Shown here: positions 10,752 through 29,118 of the stretch, in pieces
Layout of the letters: each line of letters opens with the position of its first letter
How positions within the stretch are numbered: position 1 is the stretch's first letter
Assembly: GCA_965248435.1 (NCBI GenBank)
Contig: OZ252100.1
Location: forward strand, 2,048,001-2,112,000
Reading direction: 5' to 3'
DNA length: 64,000 nt
DNA from: Candidatus Latescibacterota bacterium
Lineage (GTDB): Bacteria > Latescibacterota > UBA2968 > GCA-2709665
Position numbers and translations under genes: made by a program
The notes under the pieces: generated by a model
What the model saw: only the letters and a program-made list of their open reading frames with translations
Told to the model about the DNA's origin: nothing
Databases searched by the model: none

Positions 10752-10788
10752 CTTGTTACTTTCAATCAGGACTGGCTGTCATTTCATA

Positions 10789-10917
10789 TAACGGTCTCGG
10801 CACCCACGAACCTGCCGAGCGGGCGCGGCGGTTGCCACAAGTTGTGATTTAAAGCAAGCGCCGTGAACGAGGTTTGGCGAAGGCGCGAATGCGCCGGAGC
10901 CGGGGGTGCGCGTGTTA
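10789..10917. repeat. attC-like site, long variant
   Basis: TAAC GGTCT CG GCACCCACG AACCT...AGGTT...CGGGGGTGC G CG T GTTA. Confidence 0.85.
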
Positions 10918-11093
10918 CACGCTGTGTTGTCCTTTGTCATCGAGAAAGGAATAAAGGAGCGACCATAACGCTCTTTGTCTTTTACGATTTTCTGTTCTTT
11001 AAAAAGGAGATAGCTATTGCAGAGAATCCCCGCCAGATAATTTATCTCACGGGGATCTCATATTACATAACATGCTTGAAAGGTTAAATCGAA

Positions 11094-15342: not shown

Positions 15343-15399
15343 AGAAAACGCTCCAAATCACTTATGAATATGCCCGAAGCCCCAAACCGGCATTGCGGT

Positions 15400-15531
15400 T
15401 AACGTTCTCGCGGGCTGCGAACCTGCCAAGCTGGCGCGGCGCTTGCAAACGAGGTTTCAAAGCAAGCGCCGTGACAGCGACAGGCAGGTTGCGCGAGGGG
15501 CGAATGCCACGAGCCGCAGCCCGGCGTGTTA
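15400..15531. repeat. attC-like site, long variant
   Basis: Family ends plus an inserted hairpin GGCGCTTGC-loop-GCAAGCGCC. Confidence 0.92.
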
Positions 15532-16425
15532 GCCGCCGGCCGGCTCTTCAGAGGTTTCCCACCCGGGCAGTCGAGATTCAATGTAGTCCACCAGCAATTT
15601 GTACCTGATAGCCAGCTTGGTGTTCTTCGCTTCTCGGTACTCCTGGAGTTTCTCCTGCGCAAACTGAAGTGCCTGCTCGGGGAGCTCGGGATCTCCGCCT
15701 ACGTACGTTCGGAATCCTTCACCTAAATAGTCGAGAATTGTGTTACCATCGATGTCCCTTGCGATGAGACTGAGGCACAACCCAGACATCTCCTGGTTGA
15801 ACGAATCGAATTCGTCTTTGGGATCGAGATTCCTTTCTTGGAGAAGGTAGTTAACCATCTCTGTGCCTATTGTGATTCTCGGGTATTGGGCAACCTTGCT
15901 CTCTAGGTTGTATGCCCTAGCCACCGCAGGTCCGTATAGTTCACCTTCCCGCATTTCCATGCCGATTCCTACATCTAAGCCTCCTCGGAGAGGATGTTTG
16001 CTGGCTAGAGAGATCAGCATAACCGAGGCGCACGCGGAGAGAAGTCCCCATACTGATCGAAACGGCATCCTCCCGGCGCTTTCCGAGAGCGCGACAAAGA
16101 CAACAATCCCATCAGAATAGCGTTGAAACTTTATCTTGCTTCCAGTAAGAGCCTTGTACAAATCTGGATTCTGGGTTTTAAGTCCCTCAGGAATCCTTCT
16201 CTTTTCCATAATTCCGCCAAAGAACTCTTCAAACATCTTGTGAAGGCCATCCACAACGCCAAATGTACGCTTCAGCTGGTCGATAAACGCGCGCATCTCC
16301 TCTTCATTGTCTACGTCGGGCAGAGAATCGAGTCGAGATAGCTCCTCCTGTTGTCCCAGAAGATCGATGAACCCGACCAAATGAAAACAAACTTCGTAGC
16401 GATCATCATTCTCTTCAGTAGACAT
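15529..16425 (-). CDS. Hypothetical protein with nucleotidyl-cyclase-like motifs
   Basis: FIDLLG, YSDGIV, LRGGLDVG, GPAVARAYNLES...YPRI. The TAA stop lies within the site core. Start trimmed to MSTEE. Confidence 0.6.
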   Translation of the reverse strand: MSTEENDDRYEVCFHLVGFIDLLGQQEELSRLDSLPDVDNEEEMRAFIDQLKRTFGVVDGLHKMFEEFFGGIMEKRRIPEGLKTQNPDLYKALTGSKIKFQRYSDGIVVFVALSESAGRMPFRSVWGLLSACASVMLISLASKHPLRGGLDVGIGMEMREGELYGPAVARAYNLESKVAQYPRITIGTEMVNYLLQERNLDPKDEFDSFNQEMSGLCLSLIARDIDGNTILDYLGEGFRTYVGGDPELPEQALQFAQEKLQEYREAKNTKLAIRYKLLVDYIESRLPGWETSEEPAGG

Positions 16426-17233: not shown

Positions 17234-17282
17234 AACGTCCGGAATCTCGTGATAAATAGGATTTCAGGGAGGGCATTTCCTA

Positions 17283-17417
17283 TAACGTTCTCGCGGGCTG
17301 CGAACCTGCCAAGCTGGCGTGGCGCTTGCAATCAACGTCTATCAAAGCAAGCGCCGTGACAGCGACAGGCAGGTTGGGCGAAGTGGCGAATGCCACGAGC
17401 CGCAGCCCGTCGTGTTA
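17283..17417. repeat. attC-like site, long variant
   Basis: Family ends plus the inserted hairpin. Confidence 0.92.
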
Positions 17418-17444
17418 TGCGCTTGTGCTGCGAATGCGTGTCCG

Positions 17445-20560: not shown

Positions 20561-20631
20561 TGTATGATCCTAGCCTGTCTGCCTTTGTCCCACTCTCAGT
20601 TTCGCTTTGGCTCCAAAACTGGCATGGCCCA

Positions 20632-20769
20632 TAACGTTCTCGCGGGCTGCGAACCTGCCAAGCTGGCGCGGCGCTTGCCACCCACGATTGTCTTAAGCAA
20701 GCGCCGTGACAGCGATAGGCAGGTTAGGCCGGAGGCGCAAATGCGCCGGAGCCGCAGCCCGGCGTGTTA
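20632..20769. repeat. attC-like site, long variant
   Basis: Family ends plus the inserted hairpin. Confidence 0.92.
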
Positions 20770-21213: not shown

Positions 21214-21246
21214 GGCGTCCCTTCATTGACGTGCATCGATTGCGGC

Positions 21247-21325
21247 TAACGTTCTCGCGGGCTGCGAACCTGCGCAGCAGGTTGGACGAAGTGGCGAATG
21301 CCACAAGCCGCAGCCCGGCGTGTTA
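21247..21325. repeat. attC-like site
   Basis: TAAC GTTCT CG CGGGCTGCG...CGCAGCCCG G CG T GTTA. Confidence 0.92.
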
Positions 21326-21365
21326 GCGGCAGTCGCCTAAGGGGTCTACTCTCCAAACCGTTGCT

Positions 21366-22451
21366 CTATCTCAGGCTAACGAGCCAATCTCCGATGGCTC
21401 GGAGTGCGTCCTGCGAAATCTTCGCGTCCAGAGAAGCGTACTCCTCAGGAGATCCTGTTTCAGCCCTTTGCAAATGGTGATTCAACCCATCCATCAACTT
21501 AACGTCGTAGTCAGCCTTCCCCCTCCTGTTCAGCACTCCCTCCATTGCGTCCATGTTCCCGCTCGGGGGCACTTGCCAGTCCTTCTCACAAAAGATAGCC
21601 AGGATTGGGCAGTGAACCTCAGTCAGTGGTTTGGTTGGGTCATACCCAAGTAGCCATTCCAACCAAGGGGTAATCAGTTCGGGGAGGCTCTCCTTGAGAA
21701 TCTGAAGTGAATTGAGCCCAAGCTTTTCATACTCCGTGCTAAGTTCTGTTGACCGACCTGAGACAAGAGCAGCAGCAGTCCTCTCGATTTCGGTGTTGGG
21801 TTTGCGTCGTCTGACTAGAGCAAAGACCCGCGTCCAAAACAAACGCTCGGACTCGACCAAATCATCGCTCGCTCCATGGGAGATGAGACGTATTTTTCGC
21901 TGGAGGTGCAGATTCTCCTCGATGCCCGCGGTGGGGTGAGCCATCAGGACGATGAACGCCGTATCCGGAATCCGTGACGCGACCATCGACGCAATCAGCG
22001 CCCCTTCACTGTGGCCGATTATACCGATTTGCTTAGGTGCTATCCTCTTATGTTTCCGTAAGAAGGCGAATGCAGCAGTCACATCCCCAGAGAGGTCTGC
22101 CGTTGTTGCTCCAGATAAGCTTCCCGAGGACCGACCTACACCCCGTTTGTCGGAACGCAGGACGGCAAAGCCAATTGATGTAAGATATTGTGAAAGTTGC
22201 ACAAGACTTGGATCGTCGCGAGCCGTGGGCCCATCCCCAGGTACAAGGATGGCTGCAGGAACTGACGATTCGGAGTCCGGCATATCTAAAATGCCAGAGA
22301 TAATAACTCCCGCATTTTTGAACTCCACGGATTCCGAGCTGGATTCCGCCTTGGAGGCACCAACCAGCAGTAGTACACCCAGCGACAGGAATAGCCTGGC
22401 GAATAGATGCCTTGCCATTACTTCGACTTTCTTTGGAGATTGATCACTCAT
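21366..22451 (-). CDS. Secreted alpha/beta hydrolase
   Basis: DKRGVGRS, GHSEG, DWQV, LNH; start trimmed to lie inside the cassette. Confidence 0.85.
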   Translation of the reverse strand: MSDQSPKKVEVMARHLFARLFLSLGVLLLVGASKAESSSESVEFKNAGVIISGILDMPDSESSVPAAILVPGDGPTARDDPSLVQLSQYLTSIGFAVLRSDKRGVGRSSGSLSGATTADLSGDVTAAFAFLRKHKRIAPKQIGIIGHSEGALIASMVASRIPDTAFIVLMAHPTAGIEENLHLQRKIRLISHGASDDLVESERLFWTRVFALVRRRKPNTEIERTAAALVSGRSTELSTEYEKLGLNSLQILKESLPELITPWLEWLLGYDPTKPLTEVHCPILAIFCEKDWQVPPSGNMDAMEGVLNRRGKADYDVKLMDGLNHHLQRAETGSPEEYASLDAKISQDALRAIGDWLVSLR

Positions 22452-22465
22452 ACGGCGATTGCCGC

Positions 22466-22533
22466 TAACGATTAAGCGTGTATCCGGAGTCGGAGAAGCG
22501 TGGACGGGAGCGGGATTCCGGATACACGGTGTT
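22466..22533. repeat. Divergent att-like hairpin abutting the recombinase/IS91 element
   Basis: TAAC GATTAAG CGTGTATCCGGAGTC...GATTCCGGATACACG GT GTT. Confidence 0.75.
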
Positions 22534-22742
22534 GAACGAAGCCGCTTCACCTGCCTATGGGGATTGGATGAGTGATTCTTGTGTAAGGACCGCTGGGCTG
22601 GCCCAGTCATCGGACCGTATTTGAAGCTGTTTGGAGGGGCCGATGTCGCAGGATCCCATAGTCGCTCTACCAAGCTCAAAGAGTGGACAGACTACTGCCG
22701 TGTTGGGTGGTTGGGCTTGCGGACAAGGGATGGTGTAGGAGC

Positions 22743-23933
22743 TCAAGCTACGGCAACATGTGCCGGAGGCGCTCGCAGAGGCGCGAGGGTTCCGACTGTG
22801 AGCATAGGGCCTCCGCACTGCGCACAGACCTGAAGATCGATGCCTGTTACCCGGAACAGAAGGTCCTGCCAGGTCGCCTTTGTGGCTGCGGAAGCCGTCG
22901 TGCATACAGTGCCCAGGAGCCTACGGCATCGTGCGAGCTTTTTCCGGCGACCCCGATTGCTGAGCAGTCCGTAGTGCCGGATCTTCACGAAGCCATCCGG
23001 CAGGATGTGAAGCAGGAACCGCCGGATGAACTCGTAGGCATCGACGGTCATCAGCTTCCGTCGGTTGCCGGCCTGGCGGTCCCGGTAGTGGAATGAGACC
23101 CGGTCGCCCTCACAGGCGACCAGCCGGTGGTTGGAGATGGCGATCCGGTGCGTGTATCGTCCCAGATAGGCCACGATGCGTTCTGGACCCGCAAAAGTCG
23201 GCTTGACGTAAACGGTCCATTCCCTCTGGTAAAGACCCCGAAGCAGATCGAAGAACGCATCTTCCAGTGGAGCACTCAATCCCGGGAACGCCAGAAGGCC
23301 TTCCTGGTGCGCGTCCTTCAGGAACGCAAGGAACTTCCCCCGGAACAGTCGGGACAGAACTTTTACGGGTAGAAAGAAGCCCCGTCGCGCCGCCTTCCAT
23401 TCCTGACCGTCGTGGGTCAGCCCACCTCCAGTTACGATACAGTGCAGATGCGGGTGGTCGATGAGTGTCTGAGACCACGTATGAAGCACGGCGGTAAAGC
23501 CGATCTGCGCTCCAAGATACTTCCGTTCCCGCGCCAGCTCCAGAAGACTCTGCGATGCGGCTTTAAACACCAGGTTGTAGATCAGCTTCTGGTTCCGCAG
23601 AGCAAGCGGCCGCAGGGGCTCGGGCAACGTGAAGACGACGTGGAAGTATGGGATCGGAAGGAGATCCTCTTTACGAGCGTCGATCCATCGTTCGGTCGTC
23701 AGGAACTGGCACTTCGTACAGTGCCGGTTGCGGCAGGAGTTGTAGGCGATCCGCTTCGTTCCGCACTGCCCGCACACTTCCACGTGTCCGCCCAGCGCAG
23801 CTGTTCGGCAGATCTGGATGGCTCGCATGGCCCGCTTCTGCCGAAGCGGCATGTGATCACCGTAGTGTGCTTGATACCCATCTCCGTGGACTCGGAAGAT
23901 GTCGGCGACTTCGAGAGGCTGTGACATGGCCAA
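22743..23933 (-). CDS. IS91-family (Y2 HUH) transposase with Zn-binding domain
   Basis: CRTAALGG...CGQC...SCRNRHCTKC, HPHLH, YLGRY, FVKIRHYG. Confidence 0.93.
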   Translation of the reverse strand: MAMSQPLEVADIFRVHGDGYQAHYGDHMPLRQKRAMRAIQICRTAALGGHVEVCGQCGTKRIAYNSCRNRHCTKCQFLTTERWIDARKEDLLPIPYFHVVFTLPEPLRPLALRNQKLIYNLVFKAASQSLLELARERKYLGAQIGFTAVLHTWSQTLIDHPHLHCIVTGGGLTHDGQEWKAARRGFFLPVKVLSRLFRGKFLAFLKDAHQEGLLAFPGLSAPLEDAFFDLLRGLYQREWTVYVKPTFAGPERIVAYLGRYTHRIAISNHRLVACEGDRVSFHYRDRQAGNRRKLMTVDAYEFIRRFLLHILPDGFVKIRHYGLLSNRGRRKKLARCRRLLGTVCTTASAATKATWQDLLFRVTGIDLQVCAQCGGPMLTVGTLAPLRAPPAHVAVA

Positions 23934-23939
23934 CCTCTG

Positions 23940-24791
23940 CTACAAGGTCGGCTTGTCTTCATCTCCCAAAAGGTCCAGGGGGCTTCTGATACGCGTGAGA
24001 TCGCGAGTGGTGACGTGGAGGTAGACGGTGGTGGTTCGCAGGCTCGTGTGACCCAACAGTTGTTGGACGAAACGGACGTCCACTCCGTTGTCCAGAAGAT
24101 GTGTGGCGAAGCTGTGACGCAGAGAATGGACACTCGCACGCTTTTGTATCTCGGCGCGTCGGCAGGCCTGCTCGAAGACTTTCTGGACACTGCGGGCGTG
24201 GAGCGGTGCATCCGGTCTTTCGCCAGGGAACAGCCAATCGCGAGGCTGGTAGCTGCGCCAGTAGACGCGGAGTGCCTTTAACGCCTCCTGGGCCAGAAGC
24301 GTCTCTCGCTCTTTTTGGCCTTTGCCCCGCACACGGATCAGCATCCGGTCACTGTCGATATCGGAAAGCTTTAGCCCGATGGCCTCACTCAGTCTGAGCC
24401 CACCAGAGTAAATGACCATCAGCAGCGTACGGTGTTTCAGGTTGTTGGTCCTGTCGATCAGCCGCTGCACTTCCTCTGTGGAGAGTACCACCGGGAGCTT
24501 CTTTGCCTTCTTCGCACGAGGGATGCCCCACTCGACCCAGTCACGCTTCAACGTCGTTTGGAACAGAAACTTCAGTCCGCTGTATACCTGGTTGACATAG
24601 CTTTGGGACAGCTTCCGCTCAGTGATCAGATAGTGCAGATAGGCGCGGATCTCTTCTTCGCTGAGCCGGTCGGGCGGTGTCTTGCAGTAACGACACAGCC
24701 CGGCCACTCCGCTCACGTACGCCTTCTGCGTATCCGGATCTAAACCTTTCAACTGCATGTCCCGGATCATTCGCTTCCGATGCTTGGTCAT
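23940..24791 (-). CDS. Tyrosine recombinase, IntI-related but lacking the IntI-specific insertion
   Basis: LPVVLS, GLRLSE, GKGQKER, HSLRHSFATHLL, LLGH, TTVY, SPLD; only a short segment between WLFP and box II. Confidence 0.92.
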   Translation of the reverse strand: MTKHRKRMIRDMQLKGLDPDTQKAYVSGVAGLCRYCKTPPDRLSEEEIRAYLHYLITERKLSQSYVNQVYSGLKFLFQTTLKRDWVEWGIPRAKKAKKLPVVLSTEEVQRLIDRTNNLKHRTLLMVIYSGGLRLSEAIGLKLSDIDSDRMLIRVRGKGQKERETLLAQEALKALRVYWRSYQPRDWLFPGERPDAPLHARSVQKVFEQACRRAEIQKRASVHSLRHSFATHLLDNGVDVRFVQQLLGHTSLRTTTVYLHVTTRDLTRIRSPLDLLGDEDKPTL

Positions 24792-25099
24792 GGCTCTCTC
24801 CTTCTGCTGATGGTGGACGTTGTTAGCAGAAGGAGGATGCGAAGCACAGAGCCATTTGCAAAGTGGCTCCGGACTTGCACGGTATCATATCCTGGTTGTC
24901 AAAGAGCAAAGGCCTTGCAGCAGGCCACCGCGAAGCGGTTTAGTTCAACTTCTGCATTCGCGTACTTCGTGGATTCCACCAAGGTACGAGTATCTGCGCC
25001 CTACGCCTATCCCGGTTAAACGTACTTAACACGCCCTTGTTCGTGAATCCCTTTCTATAGAGACACGTGAATTTGACAACCGAGTGCCGCGTAATACGG

Positions 25100-25160
25100 C
25101 CGATCCCGCGAAGGATGTTGGGCCAAAGAGCGAAGCGACCGAAGCGCAAAGCCCGTGTTA
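25100..25160. repeat. Right half of a decayed attC-like site
   Basis: ...GTTGGGCC...GAAGCGCAAAGCCCGTGTTA. Confidence 0.6.
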
Positions 25161-25181
25161 CACGCTGGGCAATGATTACCT

Positions 25182-25664: not shown

Positions 25665-25700
25665 TCAGGAGCTCTCCTCTTGTATCTAGTGCCTTGCGCA

Positions 25701-25782
25701 TAACGGTCCCGCCGTGCGCGAACCGCCGCAGGCAAGTTAGGTCGGAGGCCCGAAAGGGCCGAAGCCGCAGCCCGGCGTGTTA
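25701..25782. repeat. attC-like site (arms mismatched)
   Basis: TAAC GGTCC CG CCGTGCGCG...CGCAGCCCGG CG T GTTA. Confidence 0.85.
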
Positions 25783-25848
25783 TGCGTCCGCACAGGTTCT
25801 GAGCTCGTCTCTATCCATCACGGCACACCATCCGACTATTCGACTCCC

Positions 25849-26891
25849 GAGTTCAATAAGGAAGTGCAACACTTAGGGTAGCAACTGTCCTATCCTAAGT
25901 GTATGGGAAACAATTACAAGCATCTTACGATAGACGAACGCGAGCAGATTGCGCTTTGTCGAGCCACTGGTGCAAGCCTTAGAGATATTGCCAAGGCCCT
26001 TGACCGGAGCGCCAGCACGATTTCAAGAGAGTTGAAACGTAATCCGTCCCCGATAGCTGAGAGTTACTCGGGCCTCCAGGCTCACAGAAGGGCTGAGAAA
26101 CGTAAGCGGGAGGCCGGCAAGCGGAAACGGCTGAAGAATCCGGTTATCCGGCGATATGTCGAGACCAAACTCAAGCAAGGATGGTCTCCCGAGTTGATCG
26201 CTGGGAGGCTTCCCGAGGAGCGTCCGAGCGCGGGTATCAGCCACGAAGCCATCTACCAGTATATCTACGATCCAAAGGTGCACAAGCAGCGGGATCTGGT
26301 TGCTTGCTTATCCCGAGCTCACAAAAAACGAAAGCCGCGGTGGCATACCCGAAAACACCGGGAAAGCCACATTCCAGGCCGTATTTCGATCGATCGACGT
26401 TACATCGAAAAACGGAAACAACCTGGCCACTGGGAATCCGACACCATCATCTCTCGTGAGAGCAAACAGGCCGTTGGCGCTTGTCTTGAGCGATCGTCGA
26501 GATACCTACACCTGGCTAAGCTGGCAAAGAACGGACCCTCGGAGGTCGCCGAAGCGATTAATCGACGCCTTGGGCGACATCCTCCCCACATGAGGAAGAG
26601 CATCACATATGACAACGGATCCGAAAACGGCCAACATCAACGGGTCAACGAGGTGCTTGGCACCAAATCCTATTTCTGCAAACCGTTCCACAGCTGGGAG
26701 CGAGGCGCTGTGGAAAACGCTATCGGTCTGGTCCGCAGATACCTCCCCAAGAAGACAGACTTCTCAAAGGTCAGCAAACACGAGTTAAAGAAAATTCAGA
26801 ACCGGATCAACAACCGACCAAGAAAATGTCTTAACTTCAAAACACCAGCTGAAGTCTTCAAGTCCAAGTGTTGCACTTAGTCATTGAATCC
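25849..26891 (+). mobile_element. IS30-family insertion sequence
   Basis: ~26-bp imperfect IRs GAGTTCAATAAGGAAGTGCAACACTT / AAGTGTTGCACTTAGTCATTGAATCC. Confidence 0.85.
25903..26880 (+). CDS. IS30 family transposase
   Basis: YKHLT...STISRELKRN, WSPELI, GHWESD, TYDNGSE, WERGAVEN, NNRPRKCL. Confidence 0.95.
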   Translation: MGNNYKHLTIDEREQIALCRATGASLRDIAKALDRSASTISRELKRNPSPIAESYSGLQAHRRAEKRKREAGKRKRLKNPVIRRYVETKLKQGWSPELIAGRLPEERPSAGISHEAIYQYIYDPKVHKQRDLVACLSRAHKKRKPRWHTRKHRESHIPGRISIDRRYIEKRKQPGHWESDTIISRESKQAVGACLERSSRYLHLAKLAKNGPSEVAEAINRRLGRHPPHMRKSITYDNGSENGQHQRVNEVLGTKSYFCKPFHSWERGAVENAIGLVRRYLPKKTDFSKVSKHELKKIQNRINNRPRKCLNFKTPAEVFKSKCCT

Positions 26892-27622: not shown

Positions 27623-28354
27623 TTAGGCCAAATGGTCCTCAGCCTCTGTGACAATGGTGCCTGGCTCGAAACCCCGACAAATGTCAAGCATTGCCCCTTC
27701 CGCATCGAAGTCGAATACGTGGATCGGCAAACCACACTTTTGAGCCTTGACTATCGCTGGGAGGTCCATGACTTCCAACTCCTGCGAAATCGCAGTGTGA
27801 TATGACAGAGTCTGGTATCGTCTCGCCTCCACGTCAGTCTTCGGATCCGAAGTGTACACCCCATCGACGCCGCATTTAGCTGCCAACACCGCCTCAGCAT
27901 GGAGCTCCCGGGCTCGTAGGACCGACGGAAGATCTGTGGTGACATACGGATTCGCCGTTCCTCCCGCTAAAAGCAAGATGGCACCTTGTTCAAGGTATTT
28001 GACTGCGTTGTGTTTCAAAAAGGGCTCTGCAACGCTGTCTGCGCCAATAGATGACATGACTTTGACAGTAGTAGTAGTTTTGCTCTCGATTACTCCCTTG
28101 AGAAGGAGAGAGTTCATCAGAGTCGCCATCATACCGATGTTGTCCGCGTCGGGTCGCTCGATACCCCAGCGTTCCCCGAGTTCTCCGCGAAAGATGTTAC
28201 CTCCGCCAACCATCGCGGCAACTTCTATCCCTATGTCGCTCAGTCTAAGTAACTCATCGGCGATATGCTCGAGACAGGAAGGGTCGAAGCCCGCCTCTTT
28301 CGATCCAGCGATTGCTCCGCCACTTAGCTTTAGCATGACTCGTTTATATCGCAT
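27623..28354 (-). CDS. pyrH: UMP kinase-like protein
   Basis: YKRVMLKLSG, VGGGNIFRG, DNIGMMAT, PYVTTD, VDGVYTSDP. Confidence 0.8.
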   Translation of the reverse strand: MRYKRVMLKLSGGAIAGSKEAGFDPSCLEHIADELLRLSDIGIEVAAMVGGGNIFRGELGERWGIERPDADNIGMMATLMNSLLLKGVIESKTTTTVKVMSSIGADSVAEPFLKHNAVKYLEQGAILLLAGGTANPYVTTDLPSVLRARELHAEAVLAAKCGVDGVYTSDPKTDVEARRYQTLSYHTAISQELEVMDLPAIVKAQKCGLPIHVFDFDAEGAMLDICRGFEPGTIVTEAEDHLA

Positions 28355-29023: not shown

Positions 29024-29118
29024 TAACGTTCTCGGCCGGTTTTCTTAAGCAAGCGTCGTGACAGCGATAGGCAGGTTGGGCGAGGGACGGATGCCCCAAG
29101 CCGCAGCCCGTCGTGTTA
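29024..29118. repeat. attC-like site, long variant with internal deletion
   Basis: TAACGTTCTCG joined to ...GCAAGCGTCGTGACAGCG...CGCAGCCCGTCGTGTTA. Confidence 0.85.

Follow-up and report, generated by a model that had tools for sequence, protein, structure and literature searches.

An IS91-family element with a tyrosine recombinase gene at the crossover point of integron recombination sites in Candidatus Latescibacterota

The 64,000-nt stretch of DNA analysed here (the window, whose positions serve as coordinates throughout) comes from a Candidatus Latescibacterota genome, labelled G000; its relatives carry other G numbers. At 22466-24949 it holds a 2,484-nt mobile element that encodes a tyrosine recombinase (int) and an HUH/Y2 transposase (tnp). 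The element is a member of the IS91 family of insertion sequences (IS), of a subgroup with an upstream tyrosine recombinase gene, and its insertions fall on the crossover of integron attI and attC sites. Its ends, when joined in silico, complete an attC-like fold. The element looks like a site-specific guest or parasite of cassette arrays and not like their builder; in the native state another recombinase, a stand-alone one that we call int*, stands at the head of the arrays.

The repeated unit and its insertion points

The extent of the element was set by its six copies in G000 (5.67 Mb in 2 contigs, 97.5% complete), which have 22466-24949 in common and diverge directly outside it. Core identity is 97.8-99.9%, with two subtypes (copies A/B/C and D/E/F) that are 99.7-99.9% identical within and 97.8-98.1% between. 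By comparison, identity is 39-76% over the 135 nt on the right of the cores and 15-44% over the 135 nt on their left, which are unrelated. As the cores are near-identical while the target modules and other flanks diverge, the six copies represent independent insertions. No target-site duplication is present, the six flank pairs sharing only an AAC core that is single in the empty site. Public sequencing data (7 runs in 4 studies contain the stretch, as assembled contigs only, and no RNA run was listed among them; four runs were examined) show contigs that break at 22466 and 24950, and a depth inside the element about 5-6 times that of the flanks. The features of the element and its target are listed below; the vertical bar in sequences marks the crossover.

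22466..22469, no strand: crossover core TAAC, common to the element and the adjoining cassette; minus-strand reading G|TTA
22470..22530, minus strand: large subterminal hairpin on the oriIS side, 3' of tnp and inside the repeated unit (fold z -3.8/-3.4)
22531..22548, no strand: right inverted repeat GTTGAACGAAGCCGCTTC, downstream of tnp; its motif GCGGnTTnGTTCnnn is kept in relatives
22555..22562, minus strand: CCCCATAG box (minus-strand reading), just inside the right repeat
23933..22743, minus strand: tnp, IS91-family HUH/Y2 transposase, 396 aa (Pfam Zn_Tnp_IS91, PF14319, and Y2_Tnp, PF04986)
24791..23940, minus strand: int, IntI/Xer-like tyrosine recombinase, 283 aa (Pfam Phage_int_SAM_4 and Phage_integrase)
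24911..24939, minus strand: two small hairpins adjoining the left repeat, at 24911-24926 (GGCC..GGCC) and 24927-24939 (ACCGC-GAA-GCGGT)
24932..24949, no strand: left inverted repeat GAAGCGGTTTAGTTCAAC, upstream of int at the terIS end; last bases of the element ...GTTCAAC
24950..25083, minus strand: attI-like module, the target, outside the element; from alignment and an nhmmer profile, minus-strand GTGTCTCTATAGAAAGGGATTCACGAA to CGCGAATGCAGAAG|

An initial annotation, made from the letters of the window alone, had placed the terminal inverted repeats, the hairpin and two intact genes here, and the sequence and gene calls agree. That annotation had treated the hairpin as an abutting neighbour; since the six copies share exactly 22466-24949, it is the element's own end. 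Likewise, the TAAC at 22466-22469 had been assigned to the inverted repeat of the neighbouring cassette, but is a shared crossover core, that cassette having its attC at 21242-21330.

The two genes are separated by six bases, with tnp downstream of int, and both frames are open in all six copies. The transposase scores 449.6 bits against the NCBIfam IS91 model NF033538 (cut-off 125), and its translation contains HPHLHCIV and AYLGRYTHR, which we take to be the HUH and Y2 catalytic motifs. The recombinase falls below all curated NCBIfam cut-offs: 191.4 bits against the integron integrase model TIGR02249 (cut-off 265), as two separate segments with the central part of the model unmatched, 214.9 bits against the model for XerA/'integron integrase' (cut-off 220), and 188 and 184 bits against those for XerC and XerD (cut-offs 335 and 330). 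G000 has its own Xer-like genes elsewhere, at 3.44 and 4.59 Mb. By sequence, the best relative of known structure is the Vibrio integron integrase (PDB 2a3v), above XerA and XerD, and the N-terminal domain belongs to the same SAM-like family as that of IntI (PF13495). In alignments with relatives and true IntI proteins, R133, K157, H222, R225, H248 and Y257 are invariant, while about 41 columns filled in three IntI proteins are gaps in the recombinase. These alignments uphold the earlier description of an IntI-like enzyme with intact R-K-H-R-H-Y residues that lacks the IntI-specific insertion, which the available text of PMC4889954 gives as about 35 residues near patch III.

The two inverted repeats, GTTGAACGAAGCCGCTTC and GAAGCGGTTTAGTTCAAC, are reverse-complementary at 16 of 18 positions (manual count). 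In the large hairpin, 22477-22491 pairs with 22514-22528, and the minus-strand tail reads ...CTTAATCG. Folded as single-stranded DNA and compared with 200 shuffles, 22466-22537 gave a z of -3.8 on the plus strand (no shuffle as good) and -3.4 on the minus strand (one as good). At the other end, both sides of the 24927-24939 hairpin covary in relatives (CCCGC/GCGGG, GCCGC/GCGGC, ATCGC/GCGAT). Within the core at 22466-22469 the possible cut positions are TAA|C and TAAC|. When the element ends were joined in silico at AA|C, the minimum free energy was -18.6 kcal/mol (z -5.4, none of 300 shuffles as low), and this unconstrained fold consists of a 7-bp outer stem of GTTCAAC and GTTGAAC, a one-sided bulge of 5 unpaired nucleotides, a 15-bp stem and a loop. 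In the host attC consensus the unpaired bases are found on this same side, in keeping with the asymmetric spacer that had first been remarked on.

Each copy is bordered on its right by a semi-conserved module of about 140 nt, running in the int direction from GTGTCTCTATAGAAAGGCATTCACGAA to CGCGAATGCAGAAG, and all six copies sit at the same point of it, between G and TT. Occupied sites read ...GCAGAAG|TTGAAC...element...AATCG|TTAnnn. A search with nhmmer found element-free modules in G000 at 4954222-4954364, 5351193-5351310 and 5004257-5004374. The first, the only one inspected nucleotide by nucleotide, comes after the stop of an int* relic and runs ...GCGAATGCAGAAG|TTAACAG straight into a cassette. 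Compared as sequences, the occupied and empty sites carry the signature of a cassette insertion at attI. The single-stranded fold of the module is no better than that of shuffles (z 0.1/-0.4), which fits the expectation for a site read as duplex.

The choice of this module is highly specific, given that G000 offers 12,408 TAAC/GTTA tetranucleotides and that none of its 65 attC matches (E<1e-3) is occupied by the element. The target next to oriIS is TAAC in 6/6 copies and the terIS end is CAAC, differing from the GTTC/CTTG of IS91, and the specificity spans about 140 nt. Five of the six copies have an attC at 0.6-1.5 kb from the hairpin end, in constant relative orientation, and four (B, D, E and F) stand at the very head of an array, the element being oriented along the cassettes, between the module and the first of them. 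As a separate observation, copy F adjoins a gene for a phage-type integrase that contains an internal stop codon, and part of the copy F module and flank recurs next to a tyrosine recombinase of 370 aa (G000:C1:4624400-4625500 and 4650300-4651300).

Relatives of the element and of its recombinase

Homologues of the recombinase number in the thousands, with lengths of about 283-284 aa and mostly on contigs of 1-5 kb. Among the 80 best-matching loci, in genomes of many phyla, 29 have an IS91 transposase directly downstream of the recombinase and one more has a non-adjacent match, and 407 plasmid records carry a transposase homologue. On a Mesorhizobium plasmid, RefSeq annotates the pair as 'tyrosine-type recombinase/integrase' and 'IS91 family transposase'. 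The order of features in relatives is a left repeat with a small hairpin, int, tnp, the CCCCATAG box, the right repeat, the large hairpin and a short tail. Their left repeat has the form nnnGAAC[GT]AAnCCGC, 145-185 nt upstream of int, and the box by the right repeat is seen on informal reading in about nine relatives (L018, L020, L022, L026, L044, L045, L051, L062 and L068) and in G007.

The 75 nt after the right repeat have a fold z <= -2 at 9 of 16 loci. The stem base TGTATCCGGA/TCCGGATACA is found again in G007, in Gemmatimonadales (Gemmatimonadota) and in Blastocatellia (Acidobacteriota), with a variant in a Clostridium relative. Because the stem base recurs across phyla, the hairpin is a feature of the IS family and not borrowed from the host array, and the recurrence of both inverted repeat and hairpin in relatives from other phyla argues that neither arose by chance.

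The sister genome G007 is informative on the target. Canonical IntI occurs in only two of the 40 relatives, G007 and G039. In G007 an IntI gene (464 bits) that points at the cassettes is followed by about 180 nt, then by the element in the form |GTTGAAC...int-tnp...hairpin...TTTACCG|TTATC, and then by a VapBC-like cassette. This arrangement occurs twice, possibly through duplication. A third copy splits a classical attC (GCCTAAC...G|TTAGGC), so that 3/3 insertions in G007 are at integron recombination cores. Two details of the G007 copies stand apart: the second is interrupted by an insertion of 1.65 kb close to the CCCCATAG box, a short way in from the right end (L113:8830-10478), and a fourth copy is divergent, with about 41 codons of the recombinase gene left. 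No homogeneous array was found downstream of the L026 and G007 copies, G007 showing heterogeneous attC-like ends, and the Acetobacteraceae genome of L051 has a single copy.

In Oceanirhabdus, the Clostridium relative, three identical copies of a related element (L098-L100) have 11 extra bases in common, A[CT]AATAAAAGA, ahead of GTTGAAC, and their other end is ...TACTACTCG. The flanks downstream of the three are alike (nATGnnATAAGAAA), which hints at a specific target; no integron was seen in that genome.

A quick maximum-likelihood tree of 86 proteins placed the IntI proteins in one clade that excludes the element recombinase (support 99 by the Shimodaira-Hasegawa-like approximate likelihood ratio test, SH-aLRT). 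The element recombinase falls inside an IS-Int clade (SH-aLRT 95) made up of 27 of the 29 rows so labelled and two 'solo' rows, L059, without a transposase match, and L085, with a match of 60 residues only. The stand-alone int* adjoins this clade, in a 38-row group with a support of 87.

Array-head recombinases and the route of insertion

The relatives surveyed comprise 41 genomes of the order, G000 included. Local-type attC sites occur in 27 of them, whereas IS91 transposase occurs in three (G000, G007 and, as a fragment, G041). What natively heads the arrays is int*, a recombinase of about 280 aa that is 48-52% identical to the IS recombinase, lacks the IntI insertion and scores 206-238 bits against TIGR02249 (cut-off 265). 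Loci with int*, module and co-oriented arrays are L165 (G000:C1:4946300-4955200), L151 (G021), L152 (G006) and L154 (G041), and the module directly follows the int* stop codon in 4 genomes. In G006, G021 and G041 this stop is followed by about 140 nt from CnATAG..AGCATTC to AG|TTA, and then by cassettes. We propose from reading these sequences that the three modules are homologous to that of G000; the module profile from G000, run on 20 stretches of which one was the relic locus of G000 itself, gave one weak match in the 19 from other genomes.

Counting intact genes and remnants, 13 of 19 int*-type places have co-oriented attC within 8 kb downstream; one of the others (G004) has attC in the opposite orientation and five have none. 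The 13 places, spread over 8 genomes in 4 genera, are not independent, since orthologues are among them. In many arrays all that is left of int* is a C-terminal remnant of about 90 codons beside the module. This is also the case in G000, whose relic, 64% identical to a stand-alone recombinase from a sister genome, has lost the catalytic tyrosine. No protein of G000 (97.5% complete) reached the IntI cut-off and no intact IntI or int* was found, which leaves the six IS-borne recombinases as the sole intact representatives of the IntI-like/int* family seen there.

The same layout was seen outside the phylum. In Ignavibacteriota (L027:5935-12810), an insertion-less recombinase (250.7 bits against TIGR02249) is followed by about 27 nt, G|TTAGCC and a co-oriented attC array. 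It is the only solo recombinase from another phylum that was checked and found with an array; at L019, L024 and L029 a downstream array was not clear on inspection. In the text of Cury et al. (2016) available to us, insertion-less proteins were judged 'not IntI' on the basis of 21 cases, each with fewer than 3 attC sites (PMC4889954).

How the element reaches these sites is less certain than where it inserts. We favour, with about as much doubt as belief, insertion by the element's own recombinase of the folded junction of a transposase-made single-stranded circle, where both the inserting enzyme and the circle are what we infer. The transposase would release a single-stranded circle with joined ends, as IS91 does; the junction would then fold like an attC, with the 7-bp box, one-sided bulge, stem and loop computed above; and the element recombinase would exchange this folded junction with an attI or attC at its G|TT core, in the manner of cassette insertion by IntI. 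The specificity of insertion exceeds a tetranucleotide and the enzyme belongs to a family that acts on such cores, which favours the element's own recombinase, as does the lack of any other intact family member in G000 in spite of near-identical copies.

Several observations count against this explanation. A mechanism that uses the HUH enzyme alone yields the same junctions, and insertion by a resident integrase fits at least as well, because two unrelated attI sites are used (the G000 module and the attI of the G007 IntI). The large hairpin is a perfect stem of 12-15 bp without internal extrahelical bases, and the covariance model of local attC sites gave no match at 22466-22537. No circle junction or excision product was seen among the listed contigs of the public runs, assembled contigs being uninformative on circles. 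In relatives, one of the three Oceanirhabdus copies lacks the following TT, and the flanks of alphaproteobacterial relatives differ.

It is possible, but in our estimate unlikely, that the HUH/Y2 transposase alone excises and inserts the element by rolling circle, with YAAC at the module's foot as its target, the recombinase being an accessory protein like Orf121 with a role in termination accuracy, multimer resolution or regulation. The junctions are compatible with the rules of IS91, with no duplication, a TAAC by oriIS that resembles the CAAC of the terIS end, and palindromes at both ends; the tnp frame is open in six copies, and the CCCCATAG box, repeats and hairpins are kept together with the transposase across phyla. 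However, the available text of PMC13181058 describes IS91 as targeting a tetranucleotide at many sites, whereas here 6/6 copies occupy one point of a site of about 140 nt. Transposase action alone also leaves aside that all three G007 insertions are at integron cores, and that the supposed accessory protein is a complete recombinase with intact catalytic residues, from a family acting on such cores.

Alternatively, the element could be a passive cassette moved by a resident integrase (int* in G000, IntI in G007) with the hairpin serving as its attC, so that its own enzymes would play no necessary part in these insertions. We regard this as improbable, although it accounts best for the use of two attI sites: attI recognition is normally integrase-specific, and the element is found at the resident attI in two genomes with different attI. 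An intact IntI lies directly upstream in G007, where one copy is in a classical attC. In G000, by contrast, only the relic of int* is left and no IntI reaches the cut-off, yet copies are 99.7-99.9% identical within subtypes, and the hairpin and repeats also occur in genomes and phyla without visible integrons.

The initial annotation had put the element forward as cassette-shaped and as the candidate engine of the array. Its first half stands: the G|TT bounds, the joined-end fold and the cassette positions in two genomes all bear it out. It is very improbable that the attC arrays are built and shuffled by the recombinase of the element, whether alone or together with the transposase: although this recombinase is the only intact IntI-like/int* member found in G000, is present there in six copies at array heads pointing along the cassettes, and is about 50% identical to the array-head int*, attC sites occur in far more of the 41 genomes than the transposase does, the arrays are natively headed by int* and its module, several G000 arrays lack the element, and in the tree int* stands apart from the IS-Int clade. 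This role is contradicted as the origin of the arrays; present-day action of the IS recombinase in trans on those of G000 is a possibility that we infer. The arrays are largely linked to a different integrase, and the alternative offered at the outset, in which the element is a parasite on arrays that another enzyme services, is the better fit, with the caveat that int* survives in G000 only as a dead relic.

Host arrays, known systems and implications

Repeats of 80-138 nt in the window, running from TAACG to CGTGTTA, separate minus-strand genes. Fourteen of them were aligned, giving a consensus fold of 22 pairs, 12 of which show compensatory changes, and the covariance model built from these fourteen identified 65 sites in G000 at E<1e-3, 19 of them in the window. 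The short R-box pairs are absent from the minimum-energy DNA fold. Clusters of attC lie at 0.95-0.99, 1.44, 2.06-2.09 (the window), 3.85-3.87, 4.65, 4.84, 4.95, 5.01, 5.33-5.35 and 5.55 Mb, and the arrays at 0.95-0.99, 4.948-4.952, 5.335-5.352 and 5.55 Mb are free of the element. A generic attC detector (AAC...GTT with a fold filter) was dropped, as each of its two versions recovered only 2 known window sites. The cassette next to the element is the following.

21242..22465, minus strand: first cassette downstream of the element, with an alpha/beta-hydrolase gene at about 22418..21366 and its attC at 21242-21330

The element splits what appears to be a single window array in two. Beyond the outer end of the module, a half-attC-like sequence ending ...AAAGCCCGTGTTA lies at 25110-25162 in the int direction (window 25027-25162), and for this reason the window array is probably two arrays joined beside the module.

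Other features of the window arrays were noted in passing. A subset of long attC sites, of about 130-140 nt against about 80 (10784-10922, 15395-15536, 17278-17420, 20627-20769 and 29044-29083), shares an internal insert of about 55 nt (...CCAAGCTGGCGCGGCGCTTGC...AAAGCAAGCGCCGTGACAGCGA...), which could have come from a small secondary insertion or could form an alternative inner arm. A separate insertion sequence that looks like IS30 occupies 25852-26888, with the attC at 25696-25787 on one side and a NUDIX cassette on the other; its inverted repeats are 23 nt long (25852-25874 and 26866-26888), and it has a 325-aa open reading frame (ORF) with an HTH_38 and a weak rve domain. Neighbouring cassettes encode NUDIX, HIT, glyoxalase-fold, alpha/beta hydrolase and DUF2268/GldB-like proteins, and an amino-acid kinase family gene (PF00696) is found among the minus-strand cassette-like units at 27623-28354.

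Among known systems, we take ISShvi3, ISSod25, ISWz1 and ISAzo26 to be IS91-family elements with an upstream tyrosine-recombinase ORF. The names ISShvi3, ISSod25 and ISWz1 do belong to IS91-family elements. The int-then-tnp order of our element is that of recombinase-bearing IS91 elements. According to the available text of PMC9229058, ISShvi3 lies inside a Shewanella integron beside an attC. In the literature consulted (ISfinder and TnPedia being outside its scope), we found no account of the role of an IS91-borne recombinase, nor a description of a conserved terminal hairpin or of systematic insertion at the G|TT of attI or attC. IS91 itself, in the available text of PMC13181058, has no target duplication, subterminal palindromes, single-stranded circle intermediates, an upstream accessory ORF, and a short target by oriIS that resembles the terIS end. 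Our element shares with IS91 (Orf121), IS801 and IS1294 the HUH/Y2 transposase, the absence of duplication, the palindromes, the upstream accessory ORF and, in part, the short oriIS target. Unlike in these three, the accessory ORF is a full tyrosine recombinase, and the target is one point of a site of about 140 nt with a TAAC/GTTA core in place of GTTC/CTTG.

The likeness to an integron cassette extends to the G|TT bounds, in part to the joined ends with paired 7-bp RYYYAAC/GTTRRRY boxes, asymmetric spacer, stem and variable loop, and to the location at attI and in attC, co-oriented with the cassettes. It differs from a cassette in its length of 2.5 kb and in carrying two genes for its own recombination and transposition enzymes, and its hairpin differs from a cassette attC in coming from a cross-phylum IS family, in having no match to the host attC model and in lacking internal extrahelical bases. 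The IS1111-attC group and the group IIC-attC introns, which PMC9229058 also mentions, are mobile elements that invade attC. Like them, our element specifically parasitises integron recombination sites; they use a DEDD transposase and a reverse transcriptase, respectively, and interrupt the attC, whereas our element mimics a cassette at the crossover. The recombinase, for its part, resembles IntI (VchIntIA, PDB 2a3v) in its best match to a solved structure, its PF13495 domain and its catalytic residues, and departs from IntI in lacking the insertion of about 35-41 residues, in scoring below the TIGR02249 cut-off and in falling outside the IntI clade.

Recombinase-bearing IS91 elements are common, and the junctions, the empty site and the second genome point to cassette-type insertion at integron cores, which makes the role of the recombinase testable by standard integron and IS91 assays. 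The element also puts two mobile-element genes in the first-cassette position, which is the best expressed in classical integrons. If the favoured explanation is true, it links HUH rolling-circle excision with structure-specific tyrosine recombination, two modes of handling single-stranded DNA.

More broadly, the position of the element shows where the attI-like site lies in arrays with a native integrase devoid of the insertion that is regarded as essential for reading attC. A layout of integrase gene, directly followed by its attI and then by co-oriented cassettes, is seen both in this order and in an Ignavibacteriota genome. We suggest tentatively, and with more doubt than confidence, that insertion-less recombinases of about 280 aa run a second, so far unrecognised type of integron, and that an IS91 lineage captured one branch of these recombinases and so became a self-inserting cassette. 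The resulting element would couple single-stranded circles made by an HUH enzyme to structure-specific recombination of the folded end-junction. Judging by the two-profile method described in the available text of PMC4889954, current tools would probably file such second-type arrays as integrase-less attC clusters (CALINs). If int* is active, many of these integrase-less clusters may have an integrase that has been overlooked.

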